Below are positions 1 to 26,246 of a stretch of 64,000 bases of DNA, in pieces (positions within the stretch are counted from its first letter, which is position 1; every line of letters starts with the position of its first letter). Made by a program: the position numbers and the translations under genes. Location: contig JBLDXI010000019.1 in the NCBI GenBank assembly GCA_047495785.1, forward strand, positions 2,976,001-3,040,000, written 5' to 3'. The notes under the pieces were generated by a model that ran no database searches, had not been told where the DNA came from, and saw only the letters and a list, made by a program, of their open reading frames with translations. Origin of the DNA: Lepidodermella squamata. Taxonomy: Eukaryota > Animalia > Gastrotricha.

Positions 1-1
1 A

Positions 2-3000
2 GATCGGTAATTTCCATTTATTTCCATGAAAATTTATTGCAATCTGTTAATAATAATATTATTAATTTGAAGAGATCACGTTCGAGTTGAATGCCACCAC
101 GAAGCCCTGCACACCCCATTCTTAACCTCTTATATTGAAGTAAAGGAATTATCCGGAGCTCTGATTCTAAACCAGGCCAACTCGGTTTTACAATCTAGGC
201 TGTGCGCAACAATGGAAGGGGGTAATTAATTAATTTAAAAAATCAGAAAATTCAAATAAAATAATTATTACTATTTTTAATATTAAAAAGGTTGGACGTT
301 TTCTGTCTTCAGAATCAAGACTAGTGCATTGGAAGAAGACGAACTAGCCCTAGGGGCTGGTCAGCCGAAGAAAAAGCGACGTTTAGAGCAGACATTGGTC
401 GATTTTATACTGTCTCACAGATCGGTTCTGTTCATAGACAATGACGATCGCTTGTGCCTATTCAGAGCCATTGTTCACGCTCTAGCTTACCGTGATTTTA
501 ATGAGCCGAGGGCTGGTCATGAACGTCACGGAAATTTCGAACTATTGCGTCCCTATTATTCGAAAGATCGCGATGCATTAACACCATTGGCAATCCAAGA
601 GCGAGCAGTAGCATTCGAATACGAAGGGCAATTGGCTAAGCAGCTGATGGAGACTGCTGGTATTGATGGAAATAAAGATCGCTATGGCATCACGGATTTT
701 AAAAAAGCTGTTGAAACAATAGGGCTACCGTATCGTGGTAAATTCTGGTACCTGAATACTATTTCGACCCCTTACTAATTCTAAGAATTTAATTTTCTCA
801 GGGATTATTTACAACTTCAAAACGAAACAGGTTGTCGCAATTCATCCTCCGGCAACTGTTGAAATAGCTGACGAGCGAAAAATTTACATTGGTTTTATCA
901 GTAGTCAAACTATTGCTTCACATGTCGAAGGAGGCGTAGGGTCGTTCGAAAGTGTCGGACACTACGTCGGCCTAACTGGTATTTCTAACATATCAGGCGG
1001 AAAAATCATGTGCCCATACTGCTTCATGCTCCATAAGAAAAATTCCGTAGCGCATAAATGCAGTCGAAAGTGCAATAGGTGCCAAACCGTTGGGGCAGAT
1101 TGTAAAAGCAGTCGAGAGCGGGACATAATATGTCGTGGCTCTTGCGGACTATATTACCATGGAAAGCAGTGCTATGAAGCTCATGTCAAGGTGAACCCAA
1201 CTACTGGAAAATCAATCTGCGATTCTTTCTTCATGTGCAGCAAATGTGGAAGAACGTTGCCGGCGAAAGCTCGAAAAAAGCACAAATGTACGTGGTTGCG
1301 CAATTCGAAGCATGCTCAGGGAAATTTAATCTTTTAGGTGAAATTCGAAACTGCCGTGTCTGTAAAGGTGATTTGCCTCCACGCGACGAGTCTGCACCGC
1401 ACGAGTGCGTTATTCAACCTGGTAGGATTGGGAAAGTAAAGCCGAGGTTGCTTGCGTTGTTTGATTTCGAGACAATTCGAGGCAACGATGGCACCCTGAT
1501 ACCTGTAGTTGTTTGTCTCAATTTCTTTTGCGAATCTTGCAAATTCCTACCGAGCTCTGACAAATGTCCCGCAAATTGTACTAATGATGATCCACGCACT
1601 CACTCATTTGTCTCTGACGGAAGTGACAATTCTTGCGTTAACAAGCTAATGCGGTACATTCTTCAGGAGCAGTTCAGAGGTCTCTTCCTGTTGTCTCACA
1701 ATGGAGCTCGGTAATTTTAATTTCGAAAAACACTTTAGTTTTGAGATTTATTTCCCTACTATTACTATAACAAGCTTCGATCACATGTTCATCATGGCTT
1801 GGCTGCAGAGACATGAATACCAATTTGAAACTATCCACCACAACAATAGTGTCATGGAGATCAAAGTTGAAGGCAGCATTGTATTTCGCGACTTTTACTT
1901 GCTAACAATGACGAGTTTGGCAGCGCTTTTCAAAGCATTTGACCTACAAAATGAAGACATTACTGGGAAGCAATTTTTTCCCTACAACCTGTTGACGCCC
2001 GAAAACTGGTTGAAAGACGTAATCAACACCCCAACACTGAATGACTATGACACGTCAAAAATGTCATCTGCGAAAATCGATGAATTGAAACTACATATCG
2101 CACGGAATTCTTCATCTAATTTCAGCCTGAAATCGGAAACTGTTGCGTACTGTCATAGCGATGTCGTATTGCTACAGCAATGTGTAGTCAAATTCCGTGA
2201 GCTGATCCGTGAAATAACAACCATACCGGGGTCTTGTGACGACGGTATCGACCCTATCGCAGGTAAACCTAATAAAAAGTCCCTTTTGAATGAACCTCCA
2301 CCTTAAAAATTTCTGCTTTTGAAGAGTCGCGAACTCTTGCTTCACTATCAAATTTGATTTGGAGAACTCTTTATCTGGATAAAAATCTGCCTATACACCT
2401 GGTACCAAATACAGGTTATTCCGCGGGGTACATTTTTATTATTTTTACTTTTGATGAACATGATGGGAATTCTGTAAACCTCTCAGACCGAATTATTCCC
2501 GCGAATCGGTGATTTGGTTCGAATTTTTATCACGAAAAAGTAACAAGCGGATTCTGCATGCTGGAAATTCGAATGGCGAGGTCACCATCAAGTTGCCAGA
2601 AACTTCAAAATTCTATCGATTCAAACCAGACGGGGTTGTTCTGGATGAAAATGGTCACATTCGCGAAGTATTTCAATATCATTGGCACGGTTGTTTGCGA
2701 TGCTATCCTGACTGCACGAATAAGCTACACCCGGTCCGGAATGTCACCTTTGGTGAGTTGTATCGTGAGACACTGGCGAAAGATCAGGCGGTAATTGACG
2801 CCGGCTATCAGCTAACTGTCACATGGGGATGCGAAGCCAAGCGAATCATGGCTGAAGACGCTGTTTTAGCAGGCGAAATCGAGCGAACACTCACTATTGT
2901 TGACAGAGCTATGCCACGGCAATTTTACACAGGTGGACGCACCGAGGTATAATAATAATAATAACTTTTATGCAAGACCACCAAGTAACAGTCATAATGA

Positions 3001-4875
3001 CTGTTCACAGGTTTTCAGGCTACATTACGAGACATTACCAGGGGAGAAGATAAGGTATTTGGATGTGAATAGTCTGTACCCGGCTGTGCTGAGCTCGAAG
3101 CTTGGATCGGTGCAAGACGGATACGAGGAAGTATTTTTTCCTTACGGCAAGCCATGCCCGAAGGTTTTGGCAATGCGAAACAATGACATTGATCTGCGAG
3201 CACACTTCTTTTCGAAAGAAGATCCAAGCTTTGGACTTACTAGTTGCCTCGTACGAATCAAGCGTGATGTCTACCTGCCAATTCTAGGGTATAGAACGTC
3301 CAGAGGCTGCCTGAAATTCGGATCTTGCCGTTCATGTATGGAACTGGGAGCTCAAGTCGCATGTGTACACAATGACGAAGAACGATGCTTTCATGCTTAC
3401 GTGACAACTTCAGAATTGAGGCTCGCGCTCGATTATGGTCAATGCGAAATCGTCCGCTTCTATGGTACTAAATTTTCCTAATTTAATTGTATCTTCCCTA
3501 TGATATATCGTGGGCATCTCTTCATAGAGACATACCACTACCCGAAGAAATCCAACATGATATTTCGTTCGTTCATTTACGCTGGGCTCAAAGTGAGTAA
3601 TCAGTAGCTTATTTAGCCTTTTGTTTGAACTACCTGTTCACTCTAAAGATCAAGCTCGAATCCAGCGGCTATGATGGGCCTGACATTGATGACTACATTG
3701 AGACGTGCTCAAAACTGTACGGGTTTAAGATGGATAAAGACAAGCTGAAGAACCCCAATTCAGCACTGAGATCCCTTGGGAAATTGCTGTTAAACACTGG
3801 TTGGAATTGTTTAGTTGGCTAATAATTCTGATAACCTTCCATCTCTCTCTCTTTTTATTTTAGCTTATGGAAAACTGGGTCTTAGACCTGATGGAATTCA
3901 AGTTTCATATGTCGACACACCATCAGAGTTGTTGAGACTACTTCGAAGACCTGGCATGAAAATTCATGACATTGCCGTATTGCCTCCGAGTGAAGACTTC
4001 GAAGATGATGGTGATGGGATGCTAACCAAAGAACGGTTACGCATCACTCATTCAACTGAATTGGAAGAGTTCCAACCCTCGTTACCTGTGTCTAACATTG
4101 TTCTAGCAGCCATGGTTACTTCTGCTGCTAGAATTTACCTCTTCAAACAGCTCCATCGGCTCCAGGCAACCTTGTTGTATACTGATACTGGTGAGAATTC
4201 CGAAACAAAGTGCCCTAAATTCAACCATGAGTCGATCTTTCATTCATGTTTTAGACTCTTGCATTTACGTGGAAAAGCCGGGATCAGCCGTGCCACTGCA
4301 CACAGGCGACTGTCTGGGTAAATATATTGAACCGTTCAGAATAAAAAAGAAAAAAAATCGGAATGAATATTCTTAAACTATTATAGGTAACTGGAAAGAT
4401 GAGATCGGATCGGGAGATTACATCACAAAGTAAGGAATGAATATAACGAATTCAAAATCCAAAGTTAAATGTACCTTTCTCAGATTTATTGGTTTGGCAC
4501 CGAAGACGTATCTGATACAACAATCTAACGGAGTAAGCTCTCCTGAACTTCTGACTAAACGAACAATTCTTAATCTAATTATTGTACTAGCAAACTACAA
4601 TTCGAATGAAAGGCTTCCAGCTGAAACCTGCCCTCGAGAGGCAAGTCAACTACGACAGTTTCATGCGACTTCTTCACTCTATCAATGCTGACAAGAACGC
4701 AGACGAGGCTTGTTTGAAGTTGGAACAGCAGGTTTGGCGCCGATTTCAGTGCCATCCCTATGCAAAGGTTGCAATTCAAGATGTGATAAAAACACTCCGA
4801 TTCAAGTTTATGAAACGCTTCATTTCAGATTATGAAACATTCGAAACTGTACCCTTTGGTTATATTAAGGGCTAA
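2..4875 (+). CDS. Protein-primed family B DNA polymerase (pPolB), 5'-partial, 15 introns, ~1315 aa visible
   Basis: GT-AG introns 7-72, 222-290, 738-801, 1288-1337, 1711-1774, 2263-2324, 2428-2486, 2947-3010, 3465-3527, 3593-3648, 3800-3863, 4191-4254, 4318-4386, 4430-4483, 4533-4590. Spliced length 3948 nt is a multiple of 3 with no internal stop. Motifs: ExoI FDFET, ExoII HNGARFD, ExoIII YCHSDV, GGRTEVF, motif A DVNSLYP, motif B KLLLNTAYGKLG, motif C YTDTDS, APKTY, KGF, C-terminal VPFGY. Confidence 0.93.
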
Positions 4876-4892
4876 CGGACTGAATTGTGAGC

Positions 4893-6054
4893 ATGGCGAT
4901 GTACAATAATAATAATAATATCGCCATGCTTTCTGACGAGGACTATGTAACTCTTGATGAGCTTTTACATCCATTATATTATACTGCTAACTTGCCCAGT
5001 TCATTTCGATCTATTAAAATTCTGTACGAAGCTGCAAAGGCCAGGTATCCAAATAATCGGGTCATTACCTATAAAACAGTTCGAGAATGGCTATCGGCTC
5101 AACCGGCTTATAGCCTTTTCCGGCAAGCTTCTACGCGCAATCGTAAGCTTTATAGGCGAGTTGCGGTACATGCTAAGGGTTCCACCTTTGCTGGGGACCT
5201 AATGGAAATTACGAAGGAATATCAATTTTTCAACGCGAGAAAGAAGTACGTCCTATGCATAAAGGACCTTTTTACCCGCAAAACTTGGTTGAGGGTGTTG
5301 AAAAATAAAACAGCTGCTATAGTGCTTGGTGCGATTAAAGGTATCATGTCCGAAATCGACTTGATCCCTAATCAGGTAATTACTGACAAAGGTAAGAGAA
5401 AACATCTGTCTGCCGCAGTGTCTTAATCTCCATTTAAAATCTCTGATCTAATTAGGATCCGAGTTTCGCGATAAGAAAGTTCAAAAGTACTTTTCTGATC
5501 TCGGCGCCAGGTTTTACCTCACTAATTCTCCCAAGAAGGTGGGTGCAATCGAGACATTTATCAAGAACCTTCGAATGCGATTGGTTCGATATATGATGGC
5601 TAATAACACTAAAAATTTCATCGATAAACTTGACGACATTTTGGATGCAATCAATAGCTGCCCAAATTCAACAACCGGCTTTAGCCCTGATGAGTTATGG
5701 AACCTTAACCCTGAATTGAATGTGGCGCTTTCGCAACCCGGTTTCATGACTGTTTATGAGGATCACCCAGACAATTTAGTCGCTCATCGAAACGCTTTCA
5801 AGACGATTCGCCAAATACGAGTGAAATTCAATTTGGGAGATCGCGTTCGGATCTTGCAACAGCGGAAAATTTTCAAAAACCGAATTAAACACCCGACTTT
5901 TAGCGACAGAATCTACCATGTGACTGAAATTCTTCCTCAAAATGATCACTCGACGGTGGCTTACCGCGTATCATCTGACCCCAACGATAAATCCGGGCAA
6001 CTGAAGCGTGTTTTCTACACGCATGAGCTCCAGAAGTTATATAAAGAGAAGTGA
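4893..6054 (+). CDS. Retroviral-like (rve) DDE integrase, 1 intron (5392-5455), ~365 aa
   Basis: Spliced product reads ...AGDLME...IKDLFTRKTW...ITDK/GSEF...KVGAIETFIKNLR...; D,D,E triad intact; C-terminal FNLGDRVRI...VFYTHELQK. Confidence 0.92.
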
Positions 6055-6069
6055 TTTCGCACGCACCTT

Positions 6070-6342
6070 ATGGTAATGTCATCCATTTCAAATCCCGAAC
6101 TTGCGTCAACTGATCGTCGATCTCAGCAACTTCGACCTTTTCTCCTTGCAACGAGAACCGCAACTGCTTTTCAACCACCGAGTTTATCAAGCGTACCTAG
6201 ATCCTCTTCATCATTAGCATCGCGATCAAAGCAAGTACTCGCCCTGGCTCTTACTCTGGTTTTACTGCTTTTGACCTTGGTTGTCCACCATCTACTATAT
6301 CCAACCGTACCTACTCTACCTAATAATGCTGTCAGTCAATAG
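6070..6342 (+). CDS. Small Ser-rich protein with one hydrophobic (putative TM) helix, within the Maverick
   Basis: 90-aa ATG ORF preceded by TATATAAA (~6038-6045); hydrophobic stretch VLALALTLVLLLLTLVV. Confidence 0.5.
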   Translation: MVMSSISNPELASTDRRSQQLRPFLLATRTATAFQPPSLSSVPRSSSSLASRSKQVLALALTLVLLLLTLVVHHLLYPTVPTLPNNAVSQ

Positions 6343-7511
6343 CTACTACGGCAAGGACTTGATTCTAGTTCTACCATCTCATGCGTCATCAGATTTGTAT
6401 CCTCAAAATACTGCTGCAGAGTTCAAAGTCAAGCTTCCACATATTATTGGTAAGTTGAATAAACTCGTATCGTCTTGCATCTTGTTACGCCTTCCGATAA
6501 TAGATTTAGGGAGCGTTGGCTCTCATGAAGCTGCCCTCCTCGAGGTTTGCACTCCATCGCAGGTTGTTTCGCTGAAAAAGTCCACTTTTTTCGTTTTCAA
6601 AACCTCTTGGTTGGACCGTGGCACTCTTGAGGAATCACCTTACAACAACCCTTTGGAGTTTGCCGAGTGCCATGTGGGTGGTCGCATCTACGAGACAATG
6701 ACAGATTACATCAATGACTTGCTCTCTGCTATGCCTGAATGGGCTGAAATCAACATGGCCTATGAGGAAGGCAAAGATCGCATTCGCTTTGACCTAAAAC
6801 CCGGCTTCGGGTTGTACCTTCCCGAATTTACGGGGCAGATTCTTGGTTTTGGAAAGGCTGTCGTTTTAATTAACGTCCCTCCAGATGAAGAGTCTAGTGG
6901 GGATGAAGATTGGCAGCAGAGACATGAACGGGAATATTTGAGCCTCTTCAGTCATTTATTGCGATTTATACTGGCCGGAAAAGATGGCAAAAAGTTGGTA
7001 ATGGCAAATGGGAAAAAACCTACATATCAGACCGACGAAGATGGTAAATTAACCCTGAATCTTTATCAGAGGAGTTTGGCAGATGAGGTCTCATTGGCCG
7101 CTGAGGTTGCTTATCGATCCACGCGCAAAGATCAGCCGCTCTACTCTGAATTCATTCCGCAAATTCATTTCCACACTCCGCTGATTTATTGCTACACGGA
7201 CCTCATTGAGCCGGTTATTTGCGGTGATAAAAGTGTCCCTTTGCTGCGAGTTTTTCCCGCGTCTTCTGGCGCATCCAACAAGCAAAAGTACAACCTGATC
7301 AGTTTTGCTGGCTCAACACCGTACTATCACCCAATCAAGTCGCAATTTTTGGACACCCTGAGCTTCATGATGTGCCTCGATTCAGGTATCTGTGATTTTC
7401 TTCTTCATCGTCAGCTGTGATTTTTACGAATTGATGATTTTAGGAGAGAAATTAGTATTTAAACAAGGGAAAAGTATGCTGACAATCCACATACGTCCCA
7501 TTCGCCATTAA
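6326..7511 (+). CDS. Minor capsid (penton-like) protein, 2 introns (6450-6503, 7386-7443), ~357 aa
   Basis: N-terminal LVLPSHASSDLYPQNTAAEFKVKLPHIIDL...HEAALLEV and C-terminal IYCYTDLIEPVICGDKSVPLLR...DSGEKLVFKQGKSMLTIHIRP match the Maverick minor capsid pattern. Confidence 0.88.
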
Positions 7512-7513
7512 AA

Positions 7514-8035
7514 ATGCGACAACCTATTAGCTCCGATTCATACCTGCACTGGTTTCAGCAACAACAGACTGGTCGTGGGATTTCTTCTTCAATCCAACCA
7601 TTCACTGGACCCTCTATTGTTTTGATGCCACAAGTCGGTAATGGCTTGGGTAAGAACGGCGATTAGTTTTCATCAACATTCTTAGGAATTTCTCGTGTGT
7701 TGTTTTTTTTCTTTTCAAAAAAAATATTAGGTACTTGGCTCCGAGGTTGGGTACGAAATAGCCTGATTCCATTTCTACCCAGGCTCTTGAACACTGCTGC
7801 TACAGCGGCATCCAACATAGCTTCAGATATCTCCACGCGTCAACAGAGTGGCGCAGATCTCAATGTAGCTGAGGTTTTTAAAAACCGAGGATTGGAAGGT
7901 CTCAAGTCTGTTGGCAAAGAAGCTGTTAATCATTTAGCTTCTCAGTATGGATCTGGAAAGCGCAAACGCAAAGGGAAACCAAAAAAGCGTGCAGTTTTGT
8001 TCAAGCAGCCAAAATCGGATCGCATTTTGTTCTAA
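7514..8035 (+). CDS. Conserved Maverick QxGxG-motif basic protein (probable virion core protein/protease substrate), 1 intron (7650-7730), ~146 aa
   Basis: QTGRG...QVGNGL/GTWLRGWVRNSLIPFL (amphipathic)...QYGSGKRKRKGKPKKR; lies between the minor and major capsid genes. Confidence 0.8.
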
Positions 8036-8111
8036 TTAAGTGTGTGTATATAAAGGATCTTCAGAAATTGAATAAATTGTAATCGCCCAAGTGCTTTACG
8101 TTTTTACAATC

Positions 8112-9461
8112 ATGTCTGACCATGCTATTAGAGCCGAATTAGCTGTTTTTGCCTCACCTGCATTCACAAATGAAATCACAGGAACGCACGTAACTGAATG
8201 CTTTCCAACAACATCGATAAGTGGAGCCCAGCAGATAACATTTGTTATCCCTGCTTCTGAAGCCTTCACAGACCTCAGTCACACCTATTTATCAATCAAG
8301 GCTACGCTAACACCGACGAATGATGACATCACAACAGAGACATTTTGCTGCGCGGGCGTAAATAACCTGTTGAACTCCTTATTCGAGGACTGTCACATTT
8401 ATCTCAACGAATGCTTAATCACGCAGAATTCTTCGCTCCATAGCTACCAGGCATATATGGAAAACTTCTTATCGGCAACACAAGATATCCAGTCTACAAA
8501 GCTCACCAACGTTGGTTGGTACCCTGATACCCCCGGGTTGTTCAACAATCTGAAGGAAAATGCAGGGTTCAAATCTCGTCGTGCGCTGGTGAAGAATTTC
8601 GAACAAAAACCCGTCATCTCTTTGCTGGGGAAAATTTCGACCGATTTCTTCAATCAGGAACGATATTTGATCCCACAAACAAGCGTGCGAATTAAGCTGA
8701 CTCTACACAAGCCAGAGTTTTTCCTTATGTCTGATAATCTGGCAAATTACGAGTTCAAACTTCTGGAGGCGGTCTTGCTAGTAAAACGAGTTGAGGTTGT
8801 TCCCGAGGTCACCATTGCACTTGAAAAGGCGCTATTGGAAGCACCGGCTCGTTACAGTTTCACTCATACGGTGACTAAGCCATTCAATTTGCCTACTAAT
8901 ATGACGGCCATTTTCCTCAACAACGTTGTATTAGGAGTGATTCCCGAAAAGATTGTATTAGGTAAAAAGAAAAAACCCATTTTTTTTCAGACCATTCCAA
9001 TATAACTTGTTTTACCATTGCAAGCCATGGTCGAGGATGAAGGTATTCAGGGTTCAGCTGCCACCAACCCTTTCAGGTTTCAACATTTCGGTCTTCAGAA
9101 TATAACAATTACCATCGATGGAAAGGCTGTTGGTGGCACACCTCTTGCAATGGATTTCGAAGCTAACGATTGTGCCCGAGTTTACCAACTCATGCAAGAT
9201 ACCATATTTCCGACTTCGAATTCAAAGTGTGTCAACATAAGTCGGGATGATTTCGTCAAAGGTGGTGGCTTTGTCATGGCATTCGACTTGAGTCAGGATT
9301 CGGATCCTAATGGACGTTTGACGCAGACAGGACAGATGGCGATCAACCTTCTCTTCAGCAAGAAACTGACTTCTCCAACGACTTTGATTGCCGTAATGTA
9401 TTATAAAAACAAGACGCTAGAAATTCAGGCCAACAGAACAGTCCTGCATAATTTCTTCTAA
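8112..9461 (+). CDS. Major capsid protein (double jelly-roll), 1 intron (8962-9024), ~428 aa
   Basis: AELAVF...ITFVIP...DLSHTYL...NNLLNSLFED...DFFNQERYLIP...IPEKIVL/AMV...NPFRFQHF...AFDLS, the Polinton MCP pattern; TATATAAA upstream at ~8047. Confidence 0.92.
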
Positions 9462-9467
9462 GAAAAC

Positions 9468-9959
9468 ATGAACACCCTGGAACTGAATGCTTTGCTCCAT
9501 TCCGACCCTATTATCAATCAAGGTGTTTACGCTACAATTCCGTGCGATATGCTTCATTATTACGAAAACTATGATATGCATACTAAGCCTCTTTACCTAA
9601 TCGTGAATGCCTCTCCAAGCTCGACAGCAGGCACTCATTGGATAGCCATACATGTAACGGAAACATCAATTACCTTCATGGACTCTTATGGTCAGGATTC
9701 GGGATCTTGGTCGGTTCGTCTGGACCATTTCATCGGTAACATGGCGAATTGTGGCAGGAAGCTCGTATCATTCAATCACCGCGGCCTTCAACCGTTTGAC
9801 AGTGCCTACTGTGGTTTGTATTGCCTGGTATTCCTACATCAGTCAGCTCGCGGTGTTTCCCTACCTAATATTCTTTCGTTAATCACTAATCATGGCTGGA
9901 ATACGAGAGCCGAAAATGACGCTTTTGTTGCACGCTTTGTTAAGGACAACTTTGCATAG
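9468..9959 (+). CDS. Adenain-like (clan CE) maturation cysteine protease, original copy
   Basis: GTHW (His), FMDSYG (Asp), LQ...CGLYC (Gln, Cys); intronless, 163 aa. Confidence 0.92.
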   Translation: MNTLELNALLHSDPIINQGVYATIPCDMLHYYENYDMHTKPLYLIVNASPSSTAGTHWIAIHVTETSITFMDSYGQDSGSWSVRLDHFIGNMANCGRKLVSFNHRGLQPFDSAYCGLYCLVFLHQSARGVSLPNILSLITNHGWNTRAENDAFVARFVKDNFA

Positions 9960-9982
9960 TATATAAAAAGAGCTGCTTGTAA

Positions 9983-10832
9983 ATGTTACCTACCATACAT
10001 AATATTAATAAATCCATAACGGAAGATTATATGACGATGACTTCGTTTACCACAGCTTTCCAGGCACCTTGTACTATAATCATTTCTGGCCCTAGTCAGG
10101 GTGGAAAATCAACACTAATCAAAGATATTTTGCTGTACCCTGGCTCATTCGATAGACCTATCGATAGGGTAGTTTGGTTTCGAGGTATTGCTCAACCAGG
10201 TCATGTCGAACTCAGTCAACAAGTTCGGGCAGTGCGTGGAATTCCGATCGAATATCGGGATGACATAACAACCTTTCACGAGGCTGATTACCTGGGACCT
10301 GGGCATAAGCTGCTGGTATTCGATGATAATTACTGCGATGCCAAGGATATGAAGCAAGTTGCAGAACTGTTTTACCGCGGTTCGCATCACAGCCAAATTT
10401 CAGTAATAATGGCGCAAAATAATTTATTTCCTCGGTTTGTTTACTGCTATATGAATAATATATTATAACCATGATTTTTAGAGGAAAGTTTTCCCGAGAT
10501 GTCACCTTGAATGCGAGATACATTATTGTTTTTCGCTCACCTTGTGACATGACTCAGTTCGGACACCTGGCTCGTCGAATTTTACCCAAAGACTGGAGAT
10601 TCTTGCAAGGTTAACAATTTAAATTTCATTTGAATATTACCGCTTCACATCATTAAAATATATAGAGAGCTTTGACATTGCTACGAGCGCGCCTTTTGGT
10701 TATCTTTTAATAGATAACACATCATCTTGCCCGCCGTTACTCCGTTTTCGAAACTTTATCGGATCTCGAACTGGCAACGTTTTTGTAAAGGTGGAAGACG
10801 TTCCCAGCTTGAACCTACCACTGACTATATAA
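9983..10832 (+). CDS. A32/FtsK-like genome packaging ATPase, copy 1, introns 10435-10481 and 10610-10665
   Basis: Walker A GPSQGGKST, Walker B LLVFDD, GSHH, QNNLFPR/GKFSRDVTLNARYII, PFGYLLID. The true start may be ATG 10031, given the TATA box at ~9960. Confidence 0.9.
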
Positions 10833-11032
10833 AAAGGACTCTGTGTTACAGTAGGAATAAACACATCAAACTCTTGATTATGTTCGGTTTATTGTGTTAC
10901 TACTACTACGAATACTACTACTACTACTACAGTATATGTTAAGCATACGTAGATTAAGTAAGCGATATATAGTATATATAGTATTGTCCAGTGTCAGTTT
11001 AGTCCATTGAGCCGAGAACGAATTCTCTCTCT

Positions 11033-11476
11033 CTACTCGTTCAGGTTCGAGAGCATGTAGTAGATCATGTGCTGCAGTTCCATGAAGACTGCATCTGAGG
11101 CACAAAAACCATCTTGCGAGAATTCCTGCGAATTTTCTTGTCCAATGATGATATTACCCGCAGCAGGCAGGAAAAGGCGGACATCGACATATGTGCGGGG
11201 TGACCCGTTCGGACGAAATACCTTGGCGTGAAACATTCCTCCGATGTGATGTTTCGGTCCATTGCACATCATCTTCCCTCTCGGTAGTTTCAGCTCCTGC
11301 TTGATCTTGTCAACCCATGAGCCTTCGATCTGCATGCTTTCATAAATCATTCGCAGCTCTCGAGCTGAGAGATACAAACCCTTGCGTGTATAGTAGAGTT
11401 TGTTCACTTCGATTGCATGACCAATGAAAAACTCAAGATCTGGAACGTGATCATCATGATTTCGACGCAAGATCAT
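11033..11476 (-). CDS. N-terminally truncated copy of the PC4-like gene, created by the duplication
   Basis: Identical to the C-terminal 147 aa of 14951-15604; lacks the native N-terminus and promoter. Confidence 0.45.
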   Translation of the reverse strand: MILRRNHDDHVPDLEFFIGHAIEVNKLYYTRKGLYLSARELRMIYESMQIEGSWVDKIKQELKLPRGKMMCNGPKHHIGGMFHAKVFRPNGSPRTYVDVRLFLPAAGNIIIGQENSQEFSQDGFCASDAVFMELQHMIYYMLSNLNE

Positions 11477-11921
11477 GAAGGTGGGCTCTTACGCTACAAT
11501 TCCGTGCGATATGCTTCATTATTACGAAAACTATGATATGCATACTAAGCCTCTTTACCTAATCGTGAATGCCTCTCCAAGCTCGACAGCAGGCACTCAT
11601 TGGATAGCCATACATGTAACGGAAACATCAATTACCTTCATGGACTCTTATGGTCAGGATTCGGGATCTTGGTCGGTTCGTCTGGACCATTTCATCGGTA
11701 ACATGGCGAATTGTGGCAGGAAGCTCGTATCATTCAATCACCGCGGCCTTCAACCGTTTGACAGTGCCTACTGTGGTTTGTATTGCCTGGTATTCCTACA
11801 TCAGTCAGCTCGCGGTGTTTCCCTACCTAATATTCTTTCGTTAATCACTAATCATGGCTGGAATACGAGAGCCGAAAATGACGCTTTTGTTGCACGCTTT
11901 GTTAAGGACAACTTTGCATAG
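11475..11921 (+). CDS. Protease copy 2 with a junction-derived N-terminus (MKVGS)
   Basis: In-frame ATG upstream of the junction; all catalytic residues retained. Confidence 0.55.
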   Translation: MKVGSYATIPCDMLHYYENYDMHTKPLYLIVNASPSSTAGTHWIAIHVTETSITFMDSYGQDSGSWSVRLDHFIGNMANCGRKLVSFNHRGLQPFDSAYCGLYCLVFLHQSARGVSLPNILSLITNHGWNTRAENDAFVARFVKDNFA

Positions 11922-11944
11922 TATATAAAAAGAGCTGCTTGTAA

Positions 11945-12794
11945 ATGTTACCTACCATACATAATATTAATAAATCCATAACGGAAGATTATATGACGAT
12001 GACTTCGTTTACCACAGCTTTCCAGGCACCTTGTACTATAATCATTTCTGGCCCTAGTCAGGGTGGAAAATCAACACTAATCAAAGATATTTTGCTGTAC
12101 CCTGGCTCATTCGATAGACCTATCGATAGGGTAGTTTGGTTTCGAGGTATTGCTCAACCAGGTCATGTCGAACTCAGTCAACAAGTTCGGGCAGTGCGTG
12201 GAATTCCGATCGAATATCGGGATGACATAACAACCTTTCACGAGGCTGATTACCTGGGACCTGGGCATAAGCTGCTGGTATTCGATGATAATTACTGCGA
12301 TGCCAAGGATATGAAGCAAGTTGCAGAACTGTTTTACCGCGGTTCGCATCACAGCCAAATTTCAGTAATAATGGCGCAAAATAATTTATTTCCTCGGTTT
12401 GTTTACTGCTATATGAATAATATATTATAACCATGATTTTTAGAGGAAAGTTTTCCCGAGATGTCACCTTGAATGCGAGATACATTATTGTTTTTCGCTC
12501 ACCTTGTGACATGACTCAGTTCGGACACCTGGCTCGTCGAATTTTACCCAAAGACTGGAGATTCTTGCAAGGTTAACAATTTAAATTTCATTTGAATATT
12601 ACCGCTTCACATCATTAAAATATATAGAGAGCTTTGACATTGCTACGAGCGCGCCTTTTGGTTATCTTTTAATAGATAACACATCATCTTGCCCGCCGTT
12701 ACTCCGTTTTCGAAACTTTATCGGATCTCGAACTGGCAACGTTTTTGTAAAGGTGGAAGACGTTCCCAGCTTGAACCTACCACTGACTATATAA
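11945..12794 (+). CDS. Packaging ATPase copy 2 (complete, 2 introns)
   Basis: Identical to copy 1 at +1962, with its own TATA box. Confidence 0.85.
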
Positions 12795-12988
12795 AAAGGA
12801 CTCTGTGTTACAGTAGGAATAAACACATCAAACTCTTGATTATGTTCGGTTTATTGTGTTACTACTACTACGAATACTACTACTACTACTACAGTATATG
12901 TTAAGCATACGTAGATTAAGTAAGCGATTATATATAGTATTGTCCAGTGTCAGTTTAGTCCATTGAGCCGAGAACGAATTCTCTCTCT

Positions 12989-13432
12989 CTACTCGTTCAG
13001 GTTCGAGAGCATGTAGTAGATCATGTGCTGCAGTTCCATGAAGACTGCATCTGAGGCACAAAAACCATCTTGCGAGAATTCCTGCGAATTTTCTTGTCCA
13101 ATGATGATATTACCCGCAGCAGGCAGGAAAAGGCGGACATCGACATATGTGCGGGGTGACCCGTTCGGACGAAATACCTTGGCGTGAAACATTCCTCCGA
13201 TGTGATGTTTCGGTCCATTGCACATCATCTTCCCTCTCGGTAGTTTCAGCTCCTGCTTGATCTTGTCAACCCATGAGCCTTCGATCTGCATGCTTTCATA
13301 AATCATTCGCAGCTCTCGAGCTGAGAGATACAAACCCTTGCGTGTATAGTAGAGTTTGTTCACTTCGATTGCATGACCAATGAAAAACTCAAGATCTGGA
13401 ACGTGATCATCATGATTTCGACGCAAGATCAT
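12989..13432 (-). CDS. N-terminally truncated PC4-like copy
   Basis: Identical to 11033-11476. Confidence 0.45.
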   Translation of the reverse strand: MILRRNHDDHVPDLEFFIGHAIEVNKLYYTRKGLYLSARELRMIYESMQIEGSWVDKIKQELKLPRGKMMCNGPKHHIGGMFHAKVFRPNGSPRTYVDVRLFLPAAGNIIIGQENSQEFSQDGFCASDAVFMELQHMIYYMLSNLNE

Positions 13433-13877
13433 GAAGGTGGGCTCTTACGCTACAATTCCGTGCGATATGCTTCATTATTACGAAAACTATGATATGCATA
13501 CTAAGCCTCTTTACCTAATCGTGAATGCCTCTCCAAGCTCGACAGCAGGCACTCATTGGATAGCCATACATGTAACGGAAACATCAATTACCTTCATGGA
13601 CTCTTATGGTCAGGATTCGGGATCTTGGTCGGTTCGTCTGGACCATTTCATCGGTAACATGGCGAATTGTGGCAGGAAGCTCGTATCATTCAATCACCGC
13701 GGCCTTCAACCGTTTGACAGTGCCTACTGTGGTTTGTATTGCCTGGTATTCCTACATCAGTCAGCTCGCGGTGTTTCCCTACCTAATATTCTTTCGTTAA
13801 TCACTAATCATGGCTGGAATACGAGAGCCGAAAATGACGCTTTTGTTGCACGCTTTGTTAAGGACAACTTTGCATAG
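13431..13877 (+). CDS. Protease copy 3 with a junction-derived N-terminus
   Basis: Identical to 11475-11921. Confidence 0.55.
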   Translation: MKVGSYATIPCDMLHYYENYDMHTKPLYLIVNASPSSTAGTHWIAIHVTETSITFMDSYGQDSGSWSVRLDHFIGNMANCGRKLVSFNHRGLQPFDSAYCGLYCLVFLHQSARGVSLPNILSLITNHGWNTRAENDAFVARFVKDNFA

Positions 13878-13900
13878 TATATAAAAAGAGCTGCTTGTAA

Positions 13901-14750
13901 ATGTTACCTACCATACATAATATTAATAAATCCATAACGGAAGATTATATGACGATGACTTCGTTTACCACAGCTTTCCAGGCACCTTGTACTATAATCA
14001 TTTCTGGCCCTAGTCAGGGTGGAAAATCAACACTAATCAAAGATATTTTGCTGTACCCTGGCTCATTCGATAGACCTATCGATAGGGTAGTTTGGTTTCG
14101 AGGTATTGCTCAACCAGGTCATGTCGAACTCAGTCAACAAGTTCGGGCAGTGCGTGGAATTCCGATCGAATATCGGGATGACATAACAACCTTTCACGAG
14201 GCTGATTACCTGGGACCTGGGCATAAGCTGCTGGTATTCGATGATAATTACTGCGATGCCAAGGATATGAAGCAAGTTGCAGAACTGTTTTACCGCGGTT
14301 CGCATCACAGCCAAATTTCAGTAATAATGGCGCAAAATAATTTATTTCCTCGGTTTGTTTACTGCTATATGAATAATATATTATAACCATGATTTTTAGA
14401 GGAAAGTTTTCCCGAGATGTCACCTTGAATGCGAGATACATTATTGTTTTTCGCTCACCTTGTGACATGACTCAGTTCGGACACCTGGCTCGTCGAATTT
14501 TACCCAAAGACTGGAGATTCTTGCAAGGTTAACAATTTAAATTTCATTTGAATATTACCGCTTCACATCATTAAAATATATAGAGAGCTTTGACATTGCT
14601 ACGAGCGCGCCTTTTGGTTATCTTTTAATAGATAACACATCATCTTGCCCGCCGTTACTCCGTTTTCGAAACTTTATCGGATCTCGAACTGGCAACGTTT
14701 TTGTAAAGGTGGAAGACGTTCCCAGCTTGAACCTACCACTGACTATATAA
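13901..14750 (+). CDS. Packaging ATPase copy 3 (complete, 2 introns)
   Basis: Identical to copy 1 at +3918. Confidence 0.85.
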
Positions 14751-14950
14751 AAAGGACTCTGTGTTACAGTAGGAATAAACACATCAAACTCTTGATTATG
14801 TTCGGTTTATTGTGTTACTACTACTACGAATACTACTACTACTACTACAGTATATGTTAAGCATACGTAGATTAAGTAAGCGATATATAGTATATATAGT
14901 ATTGTCCAGTGTCAGTTTAGTCCATTGAGCCGAGAACGAATTCTCTCTCT

Positions 14951-15604
14951 CTACTCGTTCAGGTTCGAGAGCATGTAGTAGATCATGTGCTGCAGTTCCA
15001 TGAAGACTGCATCTGAGGCACAAAAACCATCTTGCGAGAATTCCTGCGAATTTTCTTGTCCAATGATGATATTACCCGCAGCAGGCAGGAAAAGGCGGAC
15101 ATCGACATATGTGCGGGGTGACCCGTTCGGACGAAATACCTTGGCGTGAAACATTCCTCCGATGTGATGTTTCGGTCCATTGCACATCATCTTCCCTCTC
15201 GGTAGTTTCAGCTCCTGCTTGATCTTGTCAACCCATGAGCCTTCGATCTGCATGCTTTCATAAATCATTCGCAGCTCTCGAGCTGAGAGATACAAACCCT
15301 TGCGTGTATAGTAGAGTTTGTTCACTTCGATTGCATGACCAATGAAAAACTCAAGATCTGGAACGTGATCATCATGATTTCGACGCAAGATCATGAAGGT
15401 GGGCTCTTTACAGCTTGTTATCGACTGCCTGGCCAAAGTGTAGTGTACTCGTTGAAATCGACTGAGGTCATTCCAACCAGGAATCAAACCGCTTCGATTT
15501 GAGCCGGCAGCAGCAGCAGCAGCATGACCACGTGGAGGTAGCAATGGACCATCGATTGTTGGCGATGAGGGGGTATCCATGGTGGTGGTGGTGGTAGTTT
15601 CCAT
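14951..15604 (-). CDS. Protein with two putative PC4/Sub1-like ssDNA-binding domains (full-length copy)
   Basis: YTRKGLYLSARELRMI and TYVDVRLF...SQDGFCASDAVFMEL resemble the PC4 motifs YVDIRE and TKKGISL; TATAAAA on the minus strand at ~15694-15700. Confidence 0.65.
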   Translation of the reverse strand: METTTTTTMDTPSSPTIDGPLLPPRGHAAAAAAGSNRSGLIPGWNDLSRFQRVHYTLARQSITSCKEPTFMILRRNHDDHVPDLEFFIGHAIEVNKLYYTRKGLYLSARELRMIYESMQIEGSWVDKIKQELKLPRGKMMCNGPKHHIGGMFHAKVFRPNGSPRTYVDVRLFLPAAGNIIIGQENSQEFSQDGFCASDAVFMELQHMIYYMLSNLNE

Positions 15605-15787
15605 CAAATAAAAGAAGTTATCTCAGGATATATACTACCAAAATGTAAAGCAAGCGTTAGTTATGACTATTTCCACCCTTCTCCGCAGGCAACCTTTTAT
15701 ACAGGTCGGACCGTTAGTTGTCATATAGGTATTGTTTGATTAAGTATATTAACCGTTTCTAGTGACAGTTTGTTAATTAATAATATT

Positions 15788-16171
15788 ATGGCGCCAAAGG
15801 CGCAAACGTCAAAGCGGCAACGAACTCTTGACTTCCTACGGTTGCTTACCCAGGCACCACCTAGCCAGCGGCGACGGTTGCTCGGGTTGGCGCCAACTCG
15901 TATAGTTGTTCTGCTAACCGAAATCTGTCTAAATTTGCTACGTCATAACCTGTCAGCGGACTCGAAGACAGTTAAGAAGCTACGTACATATAAAGCAACT
16001 ATCGAGCGCATTTCCAAGTTTAAATCACCAGACATCAACCGCCAATTGCTAGTTCAAAACGGCAGTGGTGCTTTCATTCCCCTACTTATTTCAGCTGCTA
16101 GTAGCGTTCTACCTTCAGTTATTGACGGTATTTTGGCACTTCGTAAAAGCAGCACTAATCGTGATGTCTGA
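15788..16171 (+). CDS. Conserved Polinton basic protein with an adenovirus pX-like C-terminus ('GasderminX'-type)
   Basis: LRLLTQAPPSQRRRLL...LTEICLNLLRHNL...KKLRTYK...LVQNGSGAFIPLLISAASSVLP resembles the Q-x-G-G-F-L-P-L-L/pX signature. Confidence 0.75.
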   Translation: MAPKAQTSKRQRTLDFLRLLTQAPPSQRRRLLGLAPTRIVVLLTEICLNLLRHNLSADSKTVKKLRTYKATIERISKFKSPDINRQLLVQNGSGAFIPLLISAASSVLPSVIDGILALRKSSTNRDV

Positions 16172-17120
16172 GAAGCATAGTCGCAAGTTGGTCCTCATGC
16201 AAGACTTGGCGGCAGATGGTAATGGAAATGTGACGACGACGACGACGCCAGTTACTACGCGCGCGGAAGGTGTTTGTGATAAAGATGCACTACAACGAAG
16301 AGCAATGACGAGGCAGCGTTTGTTTGATGGGCCCGCCTATTCCAAGGTGGAAGATTTGGAAAATCAAATGACTGATATACTACAGCAACCAAATGTTAAC
16401 TCGCAGAGTGCACGAGAGTACAACTACCTGTTCGGGGAACTTGAACGGCTCAAGCAAAACTTTCGACTGTTCCAAAATACCAGAGTTAACAACCAGACTG
16501 ATCAAGCACCTACGAAAGAGTCACCTCGACCTCCTGCTCCCACACCTGTTACTGGCACTACGCCTACCGCGGCGGCTGCTGCTGCTGCTTCTGATCCGGT
16601 AGCCGGTGGTAGTGATACTGCTGTAGCAGGCACGGTTACTAATGGGGACGCTACAACCAATTACCTCAATGCTCGCTTTGGCAGTTTAAAGTCTGATCAA
16701 CTTGAAAAAGCATCCTCTATTTTGAATCATCTGCGTTCGAATTTGTCACCTGATGCTACCTTCACATTGGATGGATCATCGTCCTCCTCAACAATCACTT
16801 TTATTCGGGATGACAGTACCTTGGCTGAGATCCCGGTCGATACTCTGGTTGAAGTCTTAACAAAAGCTCCAAGCAAATTATCAGTCTCCGCAAAGCAGCT
16901 GTTTCAACCAGTTGCGGAACTCTTGTCAAAGACCTCTGCACCCATGCATCTATTCGCAAAGTCGAGCATTGGTAAATCGGTCACGGCGATGACTAATGCT
17001 CGCTATCAAAATCCGACGCGTCCGCCGCGCCAACGGTCTATGTCGTCGTCATCGTTCCTTCGAGACATTGTTACACCTGATATTGCAACCATGTTTCCGT
17101 GGGAACACGTGGGAACATGA
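16164..17120 (+). CDS. Conserved Polinton hypothetical protein (~318 aa)
   Basis: RKLVL N-terminus and LENQMTDILQQP...AREYNYLFGELERL helix, as recalled from Polinton ORFs following the pX-like gene; overlaps the previous stop codon. Confidence 0.65.
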   Translation: MSEKHSRKLVLMQDLAADGNGNVTTTTTPVTTRAEGVCDKDALQRRAMTRQRLFDGPAYSKVEDLENQMTDILQQPNVNSQSAREYNYLFGELERLKQNFRLFQNTRVNNQTDQAPTKESPRPPAPTPVTGTTPTAAAAAAASDPVAGGSDTAVAGTVTNGDATTNYLNARFGSLKSDQLEKASSILNHLRSNLSPDATFTLDGSSSSSTITFIRDDSTLAEIPVDTLVEVLTKAPSKLSVSAKQLFQPVAELLSKTSAPMHLFAKSSIGKSVTAMTNARYQNPTRPPRQRSMSSSSFLRDIVTPDIATMFPWEHVGT

Positions 17121-17142
17121 TAAAAGATTGTGGTTGCTGCTG

Positions 17143-17178
<36 letters not shown>

Positions 17179-17271
17179 TTACTACTACTATCGTAATAAA
17201 ATTTGCAATAAAACACGACCTGCAGGGGTGTCTCAATCGTTCATTCTTTCATTCATTCATTCATTCATTCA
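17143..17271 (+). repeat. Microsatellites (TAC)n 17143-17190 and (TTCA)n 17240-17271
   Basis: Seen directly. Confidence 0.9.
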
Positions 17272-17329
17272 TACAACTGCATTTACCAAACCTGCCGCAG
17301 TCACATGATCATGGGAACATTTTTCAACA

Positions 17330-17543
17330 AACAACCTTGATATTTATTATTCAATTTTCATTTTCGCGCCAAAAATTACCAACGACCTTGACATTTATTT
17401 TCAAATTTTCATTTTCGCGCCAAAAATTACAAACGACCTTGACATTTATTTTCAAATTTTTCATTTTCGCGCCAAAAATTACAAACGACCTTGACATTTA
17501 TTTTCAAATTTTCGCGCCAAAACTTTCTCAAACGACCTTGACA
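17330..17543 (+). repeat. Subterminal ~51-nt tandem repeats (~4.3 copies) in the presumed right TIR
   Basis: Unit AACGACCTTGACATTTATTTTCAAATTTTCATTTTCGCGCCAAAAATTAC. Confidence 0.9.
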
Positions 17544-17623
17544 TAATCATTATGATTCATTTCTCCGACCGTGGGAAAATATTTGAATTTTTGACCGTTG
17601 CTGGAGACCCCCCCCTTACTACT

Positions 17624-17686
17624 CAATTGATAGATAAAATTGGGTAGCCTCACCATAACGCCTAGGAATAATGCAAGCTTTACCAT
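17624..17686 (-). CDS. Exon 1 (17686-17654, MVKLALFLGVM) and 30 nt of intron of a 4-Cys secreted peptide gene, interrupted by the Maverick
   Basis: Homologous to exon 1 and the GTGAGG intron of the copies at 18.7, 21.35 and 25.49 kb; homology stops exactly at the Maverick terminus. Confidence 0.85.
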
Positions 17687-18425
17687 GATGAAATCTTAAA
17701 GTTAAAATAATAATTGTTATCACAAAGTTTGAAACAAGAAAATTTAAGGGAGGCAACAACTGCTTCTCGAAATCGACTCACTCATTCATCGCATACCGAA
17801 TATACAGTCGTAGCGCAAGCAGCAGCCAACAGATATGACATTAGCGAAAACACCAGCACAGGGGACGGGGGACATCTGCTATATGTAATAACATTTCCCT
17901 TCCTAAACTCCGTGTGTCTTAAATGAAAACTTCAATACAAAAACAATTCTTTTTATTACGCTGAAGGCAAATAAAAAGAAGCTGATGTTGAATAATAAGA
18001 AAACGTTAGTTGAAGTTCAATTGTTCACAGCAAGGACCAAGGACTCGTTGCAGACGATATTGCGCGAAAACGGTCGCCAAGGCTTATATAAAGCAGGGCA
18101 AAAACAGCCAAATTCCTCGGGTCGCAAACCCTCGACACCTGGGCAACCTCGGCAACGTAGAGCTGTCCGTGGCTGAAGACACTGGTGTGTAGAAGGGATA
18201 AGCCGAGGAAGTTGAAAGTCAGGCCGTGACTTTTATTGAAGGTCGTAGCAGAAGCGATTTTCCTGATTTGTCATTCTATGGCATAATTCCGATTTCTTAC
18301 TTCGCATTATATCTATAATGACACAGCAAGTGAATATTTTATTATGCCATTGATTGGAATACTTGGTGGGCAATTCATAAGAAAGGATAATTTAAAGTTG
18401 TATAGCATGAATACAGCATGTCTAA

Positions 18426-18714
18426 TCAGCTAGGTCTGCAGACGGCGGTAAACCCGCCTCTTTTCCATTTACCGGGTTTGCCAGAATAGGTTGTACACTT
18501 GCTCCCAATCTCAACGCAACCGAAATCAGGAGCCAACATCAACTTGCGAGTACAAGAGGCTATTTGCGCCTCTACTTGCTCGTCAAACGGAAGGCCTTCT
18601 GCCATGAAAAGTAAAGCGACAGTGGCCTGTTGGAATATAACCGAATGATTATAATGGATAGATCAAATCTGGTAGCCTCACCATAACGCCGATGAACAAC
18701 GCCAGCTTTACCAT
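18426..18714 (-). CDS. Small secreted 4-Cys peptide, family A (77 aa; intron 18627-18681)
   Basis: MVKLALFIGVM/ATVALLFMAEGLPFDEQVEAQIASCTRKLMLAPDFGCVEIGSKCTTYSGKPGKWKRGGFTAVCRPS*. Confidence 0.82.
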
Positions 18715-18957
18715 GATAAAAAATTTGAAAACAAATTTTTACCACGAAGTTTGAAATTAGGATATGTATTTGAATTAGAGTATGCCTCACTTAAGTGAGG
18801 CAGCAACTACTTCTTCAAATCGACTCACTTATTCATCGCCTACTGAATATACAGTCTTAGCGCAAGCAGCGTTACGTCAGCGAAAACACAAGTATAGGGT
18901 ACCGCTGCTGCTATGTAATATTATTATCTACTTGGGTTAATAGCCGCTTTTACAATA

Positions 18958-21052: not shown

Positions 21053-21353
21053 TCAGTTAGTTCTGCAGACAGCAGTAAACCCGCCTCTTTTCCATTTACC
21101 AGATTTGCCAGTATAGGTTGTACACTTGCTCCCAATCTCAACGCAACCGAACCCATGAGTTCTCAACGCAACCATCATCCAATTGCGAATGCAAATGGTT
21201 TTTTCCGCCTCTGCCTGCTCGTCAACCGGAAGGCCTTCAGCCAAGAAAAGTAGGGCGAGAGCGGCCTGTTGGAAAATAACTGAATGATTATAATTGATAG
21301 AGCAAATTGCGTAGCCTCACCATAACACTGATGAGCAATGCAAGCTTTGCCAT
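21053..21353 (-). CDS. Small secreted 4-Cys peptide, family A (81 aa; intron 21266-21320)
   Basis: MAKLALLISVM/AALALLFLAEGLPVDEQAEAEKTICIRNWMMVALRTHGFGCVEIGSKCTTYTGKSGKWKRGGFTAVCRTN*. Confidence 0.82.
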
Positions 21354-22092
21354 AACGAAATTTAAAAGTTAGAAAAATTCTAGTTAACACGAAGTTTTAA
21401 ACTGAAAAGCGAATATATGTAAGTGAGGCAGCAACGACTTCTCGTAATTGACTCGCTTATTCATCGCTTACTCGTATCGCAAGTAGCTGCCTAATGCGTT
21501 TACGTCAGCCGAAAAAACCAGCATGAATGACACCTGATCCAACAATATGATTACGATATCGGGCTCAATTACAAGCCTACAGCGATAAAATGAAAGGCGG
21601 AAACACAGAAAAATGGTAAATGGAATAGCGAAATTGAAAGCTAACGCATAACGGAACATGACGCCATAGAGAAATTGAGACCATTTTCTCTATGGCAAAA
21701 CTCCGGCGCACAACTCTGACGATCGTGTGGCCGGTGACCGGTGACCGGTCCTCACGCGGTAATCTTGGTTGGCCAGGCTTCGCCAATACGGCTCATCCCA
21801 GGGGCAAAAAGCGAGACGGATTGACTTGGTGGATGTTGAGACGGCACCAACGCAGTCACCTCGTTGAAATCCAAACATCGACCGTCCGAACGGACAATTG
21901 TGATATGCCCATTTTTTCCTTCATCTTTGCTCGATAAAGATCGGATGAAAATACAGGGTGCCCACATCCTGCTTGGCGACAAGCCCATTTGTGCGTTACG
22001 TGTCTATGGCTAAGAAGTTTGTTACGGTACAGAACGACTAAGCAGCGGAAAATGAAGAAGAAGGCGATGAGGAAGAAGAAGCGCAATCAGCA

Positions 22093-22435: not shown

Positions 22436-22655
22436 AACGCTGAGTTCAAGCGGGTTTGGCGGACCGCTCTGTTTAAAGCAGCCCCCTATTAGGATGGAAT
22501 GCATAATTTCGGGTCATAATTGGCCTGATTAGATGCGCCACACCTTGCCGCACTTGGCACTCAAGTGGCACACTTCGATGGTATCCATGACAAGGATATA
22601 AGGGATGATTAGTGTGGTCCGCCAAGAAATAATGGTCCGTTGAACTCAGCGACGT
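22436..22655. mobile_element. Non-autonomous DNA transposon copy (related to 37487-37926)
   Basis: ~140 nt near-identical in inverted orientation to ~37533-37676; shared end TGGTCCGTTGAACTCAGCGACG-TA. Confidence 0.65.
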
Positions 22656-25110: not shown

Positions 25111-25201
25111 ATAATTTAATGTTTCTGAAGCAAATCTCTCCGCATCTCATCCATCAACAGTTCATATGTCATTCAGTAATTGAATCTCCCCCGAACTCGT
25201 A

Positions 25202-25490
25202 TCAGATACGTCTGCAGGAAGCGTAAAACTCGCCTTTTCTCCATTTACCAGGTTTGCCAGTATAGGTTGAACACTTGCTCCCAATCTCAACGCAACCGAT
25301 ACCACGAGCGTTCATCCAATTCCGGGCGCAAGCGACTCTTCCCGCCTCTACCTGCTGTTCAAACGGCAGGCCTTCAGCCAAGAAAAATAGAGCGAGAGCG
25401 GCCTGTTCGAAAAGAATTATATGAATATAATTGATAGAGCAAATTGTGCAGCCTCACCATAATGCCGATAAACAATGCAAGCTTCGCCAT
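25202..25490 (-). CDS. Small secreted 4-Cys peptide, family A (77 aa; intron 25403-25457)
   Basis: MAKLALFIGIM/AALALFFLAEGLPFEQQVEAGRVACARNWMNARGIGCVEIGSKCSTYTGKPGKWRKGEFYASCRRI*. Confidence 0.82.
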
Positions 25491-26246
25491 GATGAAATTT
25501 GAAAGTTTGAAAAATAATTGTTCTCACGAAGTTTTAAAGAAGAATAATGAACTGAGGCAGCTTCAGCTTCTCGAAATCGACTCAGTTATTCATCGACTGC
25601 TGAATATACAGTCGTATCGCAAACGCGCTAGCGTTTCGGTAATTTGACTCGCTATTTGACGGTAATGTCATCTCGCCAATGTTTTCAAGTGTATTTTACC
25701 GATAACGGAAAGGCGGTAAATTTTACCGCAGCGCCGCAAAGAATAAAAATGAACACCGCTATTTATCGGCTAATTCATCGGTGTACTGGATATATACACT
25801 CTAATCTCGAGTAGCTGTCAAGTTTTGGCGTCAGCCAAAAACACCAGCATGAATGACACCTGATCCAACAATGATGACGATAGCGAGCGAAATATGGCAA
25901 TAACAAACTTACAGCGATAAAATGACAACGCTAACGTTCAGGTATAACTCTCCATTTGGCGGTAATTATTTTATCGCAGCACGCAAACAAGGTTACCTTA
26001 ATGCTTGTGCGGTAAAACTAGCGCCGTAGCGTTAGTAAATTTTACCGCACACCGCGTTAGTTTTAGCGTAGAGAACTCGCGGCAGTACCTATTTAACGCA
26101 AGATTTTGTCTTCTCACGCTTTCTGAGGCTGACACAGCGAGCGCAAGAAAAATGCTGCTTATGAGCCATGGCGGAATACCGCGCGCACACCATGGTAACG
26201 CGTCATTTTGTAAAACCTTCGTTTTTTATTTGTTAATACTTGATTG

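Follow-up and report, generated by a model that had tools for sequence, protein, structure and literature searches.

Can a virus-like element in an animal genome have nearly all of its core genes broken up by introns, and yet be more than a fossil? This question is raised by a 64,000-nucleotide (nt) stretch from the gastrotrich Lepidodermella squamata (contig JBLDXI010000019.1, positions 2,976,001 to 3,040,000; "the window"). Judged by its gene content, the first part of the window is a Maverick/Polinton element. It keeps all seven Maverick core genes, and six of the seven are interrupted. A preliminary description of this locus, made from the sequence alone, proposed that 22 short spliceosomal introns account for the interruptions. 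We found that homologous proteins skip the proposed introns. We think it probable that the host splices these genes, and that the lineage went on copying and integrating itself after it had gained the introns.

The introns were chosen by eye from 235 candidate AT-rich GT-AG pairs, guided by Polinton motifs; the GT-AG ends of 22/22 introns are thus a selection criterion and not an independent result. Our independent reconstruction gave the same counts as the preliminary description: 15 introns in pPolB, one in the integrase, two in the minor capsid gene, one in the PW-like gene, one in the major capsid gene, and two in the ATPase. The size range was also identical (47-81 nt, with a median of 63 nt; 12 of the 22 are 58-66 nt). 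As had been claimed, splicing leaves no frameshift, and by exon-by-exon frame arithmetic there are no internal stops in any of the six genes. The other two frames of the long exons do carry stops. Most of the introns (14/22) have a length that is not a multiple of three and would shift the frame if unspliced. Eight are frame-neutral, and six of the seven that we could test by reading through contain an in-frame stop. The exception is the first intron of the minor capsid gene: translating through this stop-free intron yields 23 residues that do not align. The introns are 71% AT, versus 55% for the exons of pPolB. There are 3.8 introns per kilobase (kb) of pPolB exon, close to the earlier estimate of about 4, and 1.5-1.6 per kb of the whole element.

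The preliminary description suggested aligning reference proteins across the proposed introns. When we did so, the homologues skipped them. For the major capsid protein, exactly 21 residues are missing at the intron site in 109 of the 118 full-length homologues (among 156 homologous proteins). Spliced pPolB, with an X at each break, aligns to its profile as one domain (E = 1e-138, profile columns 76-1245), and the net insertion is zero at 11 of the 14 testable junctions. The remaining three junctions are in looser regions and have net insertions of +8, -6, and -5, versus +19 to +23 expected if the stretches were coding. (We left out the intron at 7-72, or 7-74, because its upstream exon lies beyond the window, as do the ~60 N-terminal codons of pPolB.) The integrase, minor capsid, QxGxG, and ATPase genes have zero net insertion at all six of their junctions. 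Overall, 17 of the 20 profile-tested junctions are in exact register. Also, when compared with frame-keeping alternatives within 45 nt, the chosen GT-AG pair came out first for 19 of the 21 junctions (for two, there was no alternative). At one pPolB intron, 2263-2324, a rival donor at 2236 scores slightly better. At the first minor-capsid intron, the choice of acceptor is uncertain, with 6509 scoring slightly better than 6503.

The homologues come from several sources. The related loci (n = 81) comprise a single viral contig plus 80 metagenome matches, the best among 524. The pPolB relatives were fetched via one related locus whose pPolB belongs to the same group; of the 120 listed, 76 have 1200-1300 amino acids (aa), and the named ones are from beetles, flies, and leafhoppers. 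Searching word-indexed proteins with individual exons gave no match, nor did a plasmid search. Scans of viral contigs gave one unrelated phage locus (L001) and one Polinton (L002) whose pPolB is from another group and did not match; two further scans of this kind were empty. Three short capsid homologues (P0009, P0024, and P0057) stop a few residues or less from the intron site; they may be intron-bearing relatives or broken copies. Relative to the intronless homologues, all 21 testable introns are gains, so they provide a set for studying how introns arise that is compact and already polarised.

The 22 interruptions are likely to be host-type spliceosomal introns. Besides their GT-AG ends, they have the donor consensus of U2-type introns, are absent from homologous proteins, and keep the frame. 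Donors are GTAAGT-like, with A at +3 in 17/22, A at +4 in 15/22, and G at +5 in 10/22. Acceptors are TAG (12), AAG (6), or CAG (4). The introns were previously described as close in size to the short host introns of the window. They are indeed of host-like size, but slightly longer than the host's short class: host introns that we picked by eye are 50, 51, 54, 58, 128, 141, 275, and 376 nt, with doubtful ones of 33 and 37 nt. The doubtful ones (46052-46084 and 46726-46762) are in a minus-strand host gene for an ANF-receptor protein (similar to class C G-protein-coupled receptors), which seems to require them.

Splicing also restores the catalytic motifs, as stated earlier: 18/18 motif patterns were found across the core genes. 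In spliced pPolB, these include Exo I-III and Pol A-C; the longest unspliced frame of pPolB is just 218 aa, so a survey based on open reading frames (ORFs) would see fragments. The integrase matches the rve family weakly, under the curated cut-off; its profile match has E = 6e-44, and the D, D, and E residues are present. For the minor capsid protein, the putative label is given from its place in the module; we found 61 blastp matches among ORFs of the related loci, where the gene at the corresponding position is its homologue. A HMMER scan with exon 1 of the major capsid gene found 3849 relatives at E ≤ 0.001. The predicted model of this exon alone has a predicted local distance difference test (pLDDT) score of 91.8, and it resembles the double jelly-roll capsid folds of iridovirus, poxvirus D13, PBCV-1, and mavirus. 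Table 1 lists the features.

Table 1. Features of the Maverick/Polinton element and its right flank (positions within the window)
Feature	Position	Strand	Remarks
Maverick/Polinton element	1..17623	+	Identified by gene set and right end; left end beyond window
pPolB	1..4875	+	5' part beyond window edge, stop at 4875; PF03175, profile match, motifs
pPolB introns 1-5	7-72 (or 7-74), 222-290, 738-801, 1288-1337, 1711-1774	+	
pPolB introns 6-10	2263-2324, 2428-2486, 2947-3010, 3465-3527, 3593-3648	+	
pPolB introns 11-15	3800-3863, 4191-4254, 4318-4386, 4430-4483, 4533-4590	+	
Retroviral-type (DDE) integrase	4893..6054	+	Intron 5392-5455; no C-terminal chromodomain
Small intronless ORF	6070..6342	+	Hydrophobic C-terminal stretch; no homologue found
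Putative minor capsid protein	6326..7511	+	Introns 6450-6503 (or 6509), 7386-7443
QxGxG protein (PW-like by position)	7514..8035	+	Intron 7650-7730; profile E = 1e-11
Major capsid protein (double jelly roll)	8112..9461	+	Intron 8962-9024
Adenain-type maturation protease	9468..9959	+	Intronless; PF00770 above cut-off; H, D, Q..C motifs
Three head-to-tail blocks	9527..15406	.	1962, 1956, and 1962 nt; 0 mismatches, one 6-nt microsatellite indel
Packaging ATPase	10031..10832	+	Introns 10435-10481, 10610-10665; profile E = 7e-45; Walker A and B
209-aa gene	14951..15580	-	Intronless; complete only in last tandem block; no Pfam match
127-aa basic protein	15788..16171	+	Intronless; 7 blastp matches in related Polinton loci; conserved there
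318-aa gene	16164..17120	+	Intronless; no homologue found
Likely right terminal inverted repeat	17327..17623	+	Subterminal 51-nt tandem repeats; right terminus ending (ACT)2
Candidate 6-bp target site	17624..17629	+	Host repeat resumes here; one side visible

The element does not end with the ATPase, as the preliminary description had it (1..10832). It runs on through a triplication and three further genes to a right terminus at 17623. The core genes are all on the plus strand, in the order pPolB, integrase, small ORF, minor capsid, QxGxG protein, major capsid, protease, and ATPase. They are followed by one minus-strand gene and two more plus-strand genes. The minus-strand protein might correspond to a minus-strand gene of the Polinton L002, but homology is unproven (E = 0.16; Atlas matches below 0.9). 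The (ACT)2 end is the common Maverick end in PMC8097293. It cuts cleanly into a dispersed host repeat, and similarity to three other copies of this repeat begins directly after 17623. (The four copies, at 17624-17830, 18425-18880, 21064-21500, and 25201-25640, are 62-89% identical to one another, and the first of them holds the Maverick insertion.) The terminal inverted repeats of Mavericks/Polintons have (AGT)2//(ACT)2 or (AG)3//(CT)3 ends. We did not find an inverted partner of the right terminal repeat within the window; the left arm lies outside it.

In the triplicated region, each 1.96-kb block contains a 5'-truncated protease gene, a whole ATPase gene, and the 3' part of the minus-strand gene. 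At the block junction, the interior of the minus-strand gene meets that of the protease gene, where the two have a short stretch in common. Every gene still has a whole copy: the protease and the ATPase in the first block, and the minus-strand gene in the last. The triplication would be either a very recent duplication or an assembly artefact. The description of the element as intact must be qualified: its left end is beyond the window, a block is triplicated, and the integrase does not have the usual chromodomain.

How might the introns have arisen? Similarity between introns is no greater than between shuffled sequences (54% of shuffles reach the top score). Within the window, the introns match only their own tandem copies, apart from five weak matches of 15-22 nt, and we found no terminal or flanking repeats. 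Because the introns are mutually unrelated and lack repeats, they did not arise in one recent burst of introners (intron-making transposons). Origins by introners, by tandem duplication of flanks, or from terminal repeats were each rejected within the window. A G precedes the donor in 18/22 introns, and 14/21 are in phase 1, which exceeds the expectation from G content (13/17 versus 0.43 expected, p = 0.005). Junctions fall in more conserved profile columns (0.75 versus 0.58 bits for the 11 exact junctions, p = 0.004; 0.70 bits for all 14, p = 0.016), but this result is weak: the windows overlap, and conserved sites are more apt to give an exact placement.

The age of the copy bears on when the introns were gained. 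The lack of stops across ~11.0 kb of coding DNA (three accessory ORFs included) implies that this copy is young or under selection, and it bounds neutral divergence at ~0.5%, counting stops and splice dinucleotides only. That would be too little time for 22 unrelated introns to be gained in place, unless selection kept the genes. Since the introns are unrelated to each other, they were likely gained individually, in a lineage that replicated as DNA and stayed mobile. We suggest that gradual gain in a still-replicating lineage best explains unrelated introns in a young-looking copy.

The word TATATAAA recurs at 6038, 8047, 9960, and 10826, at or near gene ends. In three of these four cases it is 32-71 nt 5' of the next start codon, and these are likely TATA boxes.

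We propose that host RNA polymerase II would transcribe the element's genes in the nucleus, using the TATA-like boxes at 6038, 8047, and 9960 and the poly(A)-like signals that follow several stops. The major spliceosome would remove the introns, pPolB would replicate the element starting at the terminal repeats, and the integrase would insert it with a 6-bp target duplication. Because this cycle would run from DNA to DNA without reverse transcription, gained introns would not be purged. Their number would grow like a ratchet, with most of them following a G and lying in phase 1.

The preliminary description noted that ORF-based surveys would miscall such an element as a decayed relic. Could it really be one, with chance GT and AG pairs that let stops and frameshifts be parsed away? 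The ORFs are fragmented and the introns were picked by eye, as one would expect in that case, but we consider this explanation extremely improbable. In shuffled local sequence, a fixed insertion has a chance GT..AG pair within ±4 nt of it just 3% of the time, yet nearly all of the profile-tested junctions are in exact register. Also, there are no stops or frameshifts outside the introns, and every interruption is AT-rich and 47-81 nt. Alternatively, as in Polinton-like elements of dinoflagellates (PMC11957031), introners could have entered the element once it had integrated. The narrow length range would fit, with over half of the introns at 58-66 nt. But the 22 introns show no similarity to each other and no terminal repeats, and apart from the tandem copies and weak matches of 15-22 nt they resemble nothing else in the window. 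We consider such a late insertion of introners very unlikely, though an ancient introner origin is possible.

Two other explanations accept the introns but question the element's mobility, and we think that both are unlikely. The element might be a domesticated, immobile Maverick: an old insertion under host purifying selection that gained its introns after settling. The introns are host-like in size and AT content, the integrase lacks its chromodomain, and open frames are equally expected from selection on a host locus. But domestication usually retains single genes and loses the termini. This element retains all seven core genes as well as its subterminal repeats and a perfect (ACT)2 end, and its insertion site is a dispersed host repeat. 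Or the lineage might be intron-rich and recently mobile while the present copy is already defective, due to the triplication or to the lack of a proper left end, in which case "potentially active" would not apply. The three identical blocks add 3.9 kb to the element, and the left terminus lies outside the window. But one whole copy of each gene remains, and the triplication could be an assembly artefact.

Several observations weigh against our preferred explanation, of a lineage that kept copying and integrating with introns that the host splices. The capsid gene is unbroken in 80 of the 81 related loci, and the remaining one has a frameshift; we found no relative that shares an intron among these loci, although a best-scoring set favours unbroken genes. 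The pPolB homologues are distant, with single exons just 26-48% identical to their best match. The first choice of introns was made by eye with Polinton motifs in mind, 6/22 introns have AAG acceptors, and branch-point-like motifs are weak (8/22 introns have none). The integrase lacks the chromodomain-like tail that 38/40 homologues have, and we found no chromo-like match in six frames that could be a hidden exon. Finally, the left end of the element is outside the window, and the triplication could reflect a rearrangement of this copy or an error in the assembly.

Published descriptions agree with the earlier statement that Polinton genes are usually described as intronless or intron-poor. 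(Our comments on the literature refer to the available excerpts of each source.) In intact vertebrate Mavericks, the ORFs are intronless (PMC8097293). In nematode Mavericks, the core genes are intronless and only cargo genes have introns (10.1101/2022.07.12.499685). Endogenous viruses have been predicted with a prokaryotic gene caller since they "do not contain introns" (PMC10120064), and "introns" from Genewise were scored as decay in PMC8097293. Surveys for Mavericks depend on genes having no introns; an intron-rich element would be overlooked or taken for a fossil, which would bias counts of intact Mavericks. In the excerpts of PMC10748475, PMC11296320, PMC8502044, PMC11244446, 10.64898/2026.07.28.741278, and 10.64898/2026.10.13.758929, we found nothing about spliceosomal introns in Polinton core genes. 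More broadly, we found no description of spliceosomal introns within core genes of animal Mavericks in the excerpts available, and the Polinton papers of 2006-2007, Repbase, or supplements could hold one.

Mavericks as such are known, and we propose that the intron-rich architecture of the core genes is a new variant. The element shares its gene set (the minor capsid gene being putative), module order, right (ACT)2 end, and size (~14-18 kb) with animal Mavericks/Polintons (PMC8097293; 10.1101/2022.07.12.499685; adintoviruses, PMC8502044); for instance, the order int-mcp-pw-Mcp-pro is the same as in PMC8097293. In contrast to those elements, this one has interruptions in six of its seven core genes, carries all seven on one strand, and has an integrase that lacks a chromodomain. 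Maverick/Polinton-like elements of dinoflagellates also have spliceosomal introns within elements that keep replication and capsid genes (PMC11957031). But those introns are repeated transposon families, mostly post-integration, in a protist, while these are mutually unrelated and in an animal host.

Among other viruses, Cafeteria virophages have no introns (PMC8547959), Polinton-like viruses of protists have group I introns (PMC12220804), and viral regions of Cymbomonas have intron-bearing transcripts (PMC10675990). Mirusviruses (PMC12768974) and punuivirus (10.64898/2026.10.09.758095) are nuclear DNA viruses with short GT-AG introns, as proposed here, but they are unrelated large viruses of protists and algae. 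Mirusvirus introns are also found in virion genes, as in this element, and a ratchet model of intron gain has been proposed for them (PMC12768974); punuivirus introns are enriched in latency genes. The densities quoted for these intron-rich viruses are 0.04-0.2 introns per kb depending on the order, with a maximum of 0.65, whereas our element has 1.5-1.6 per kb. With introns in its capsid and packaging genes, its entire cycle would be bound to the nucleus. A bolder proposal, which we offer tentatively and consider rather doubtful, is that this is a still-replicating, virion-forming lineage of animal Mavericks; that its replication, integration, and virion genes all need host splicing; that it is denser in introns than the intron-rich viruses in the cited work; and that it belongs to a broad class of Polintons hidden from ORF surveys.

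The remainder of the window contains host genes with Pfam matches to papain protease, ANF receptor, fucosyltransferase, SCAMP, and two-pore potassium channel, a set that suggests an animal host. A cysteine-rich ORF of 522 aa on the minus strand (29049-30617) has no Pfam match. Degenerate CCCTAA-like tracts lie within host introns at 51395-51480 and 55815-55875. Finally, inverted repeat arms at 22453-22630 and 37508-37683 are 94-96% complementary and ~15 kb apart; they may represent two copies of a DNA transposon or else its ends.

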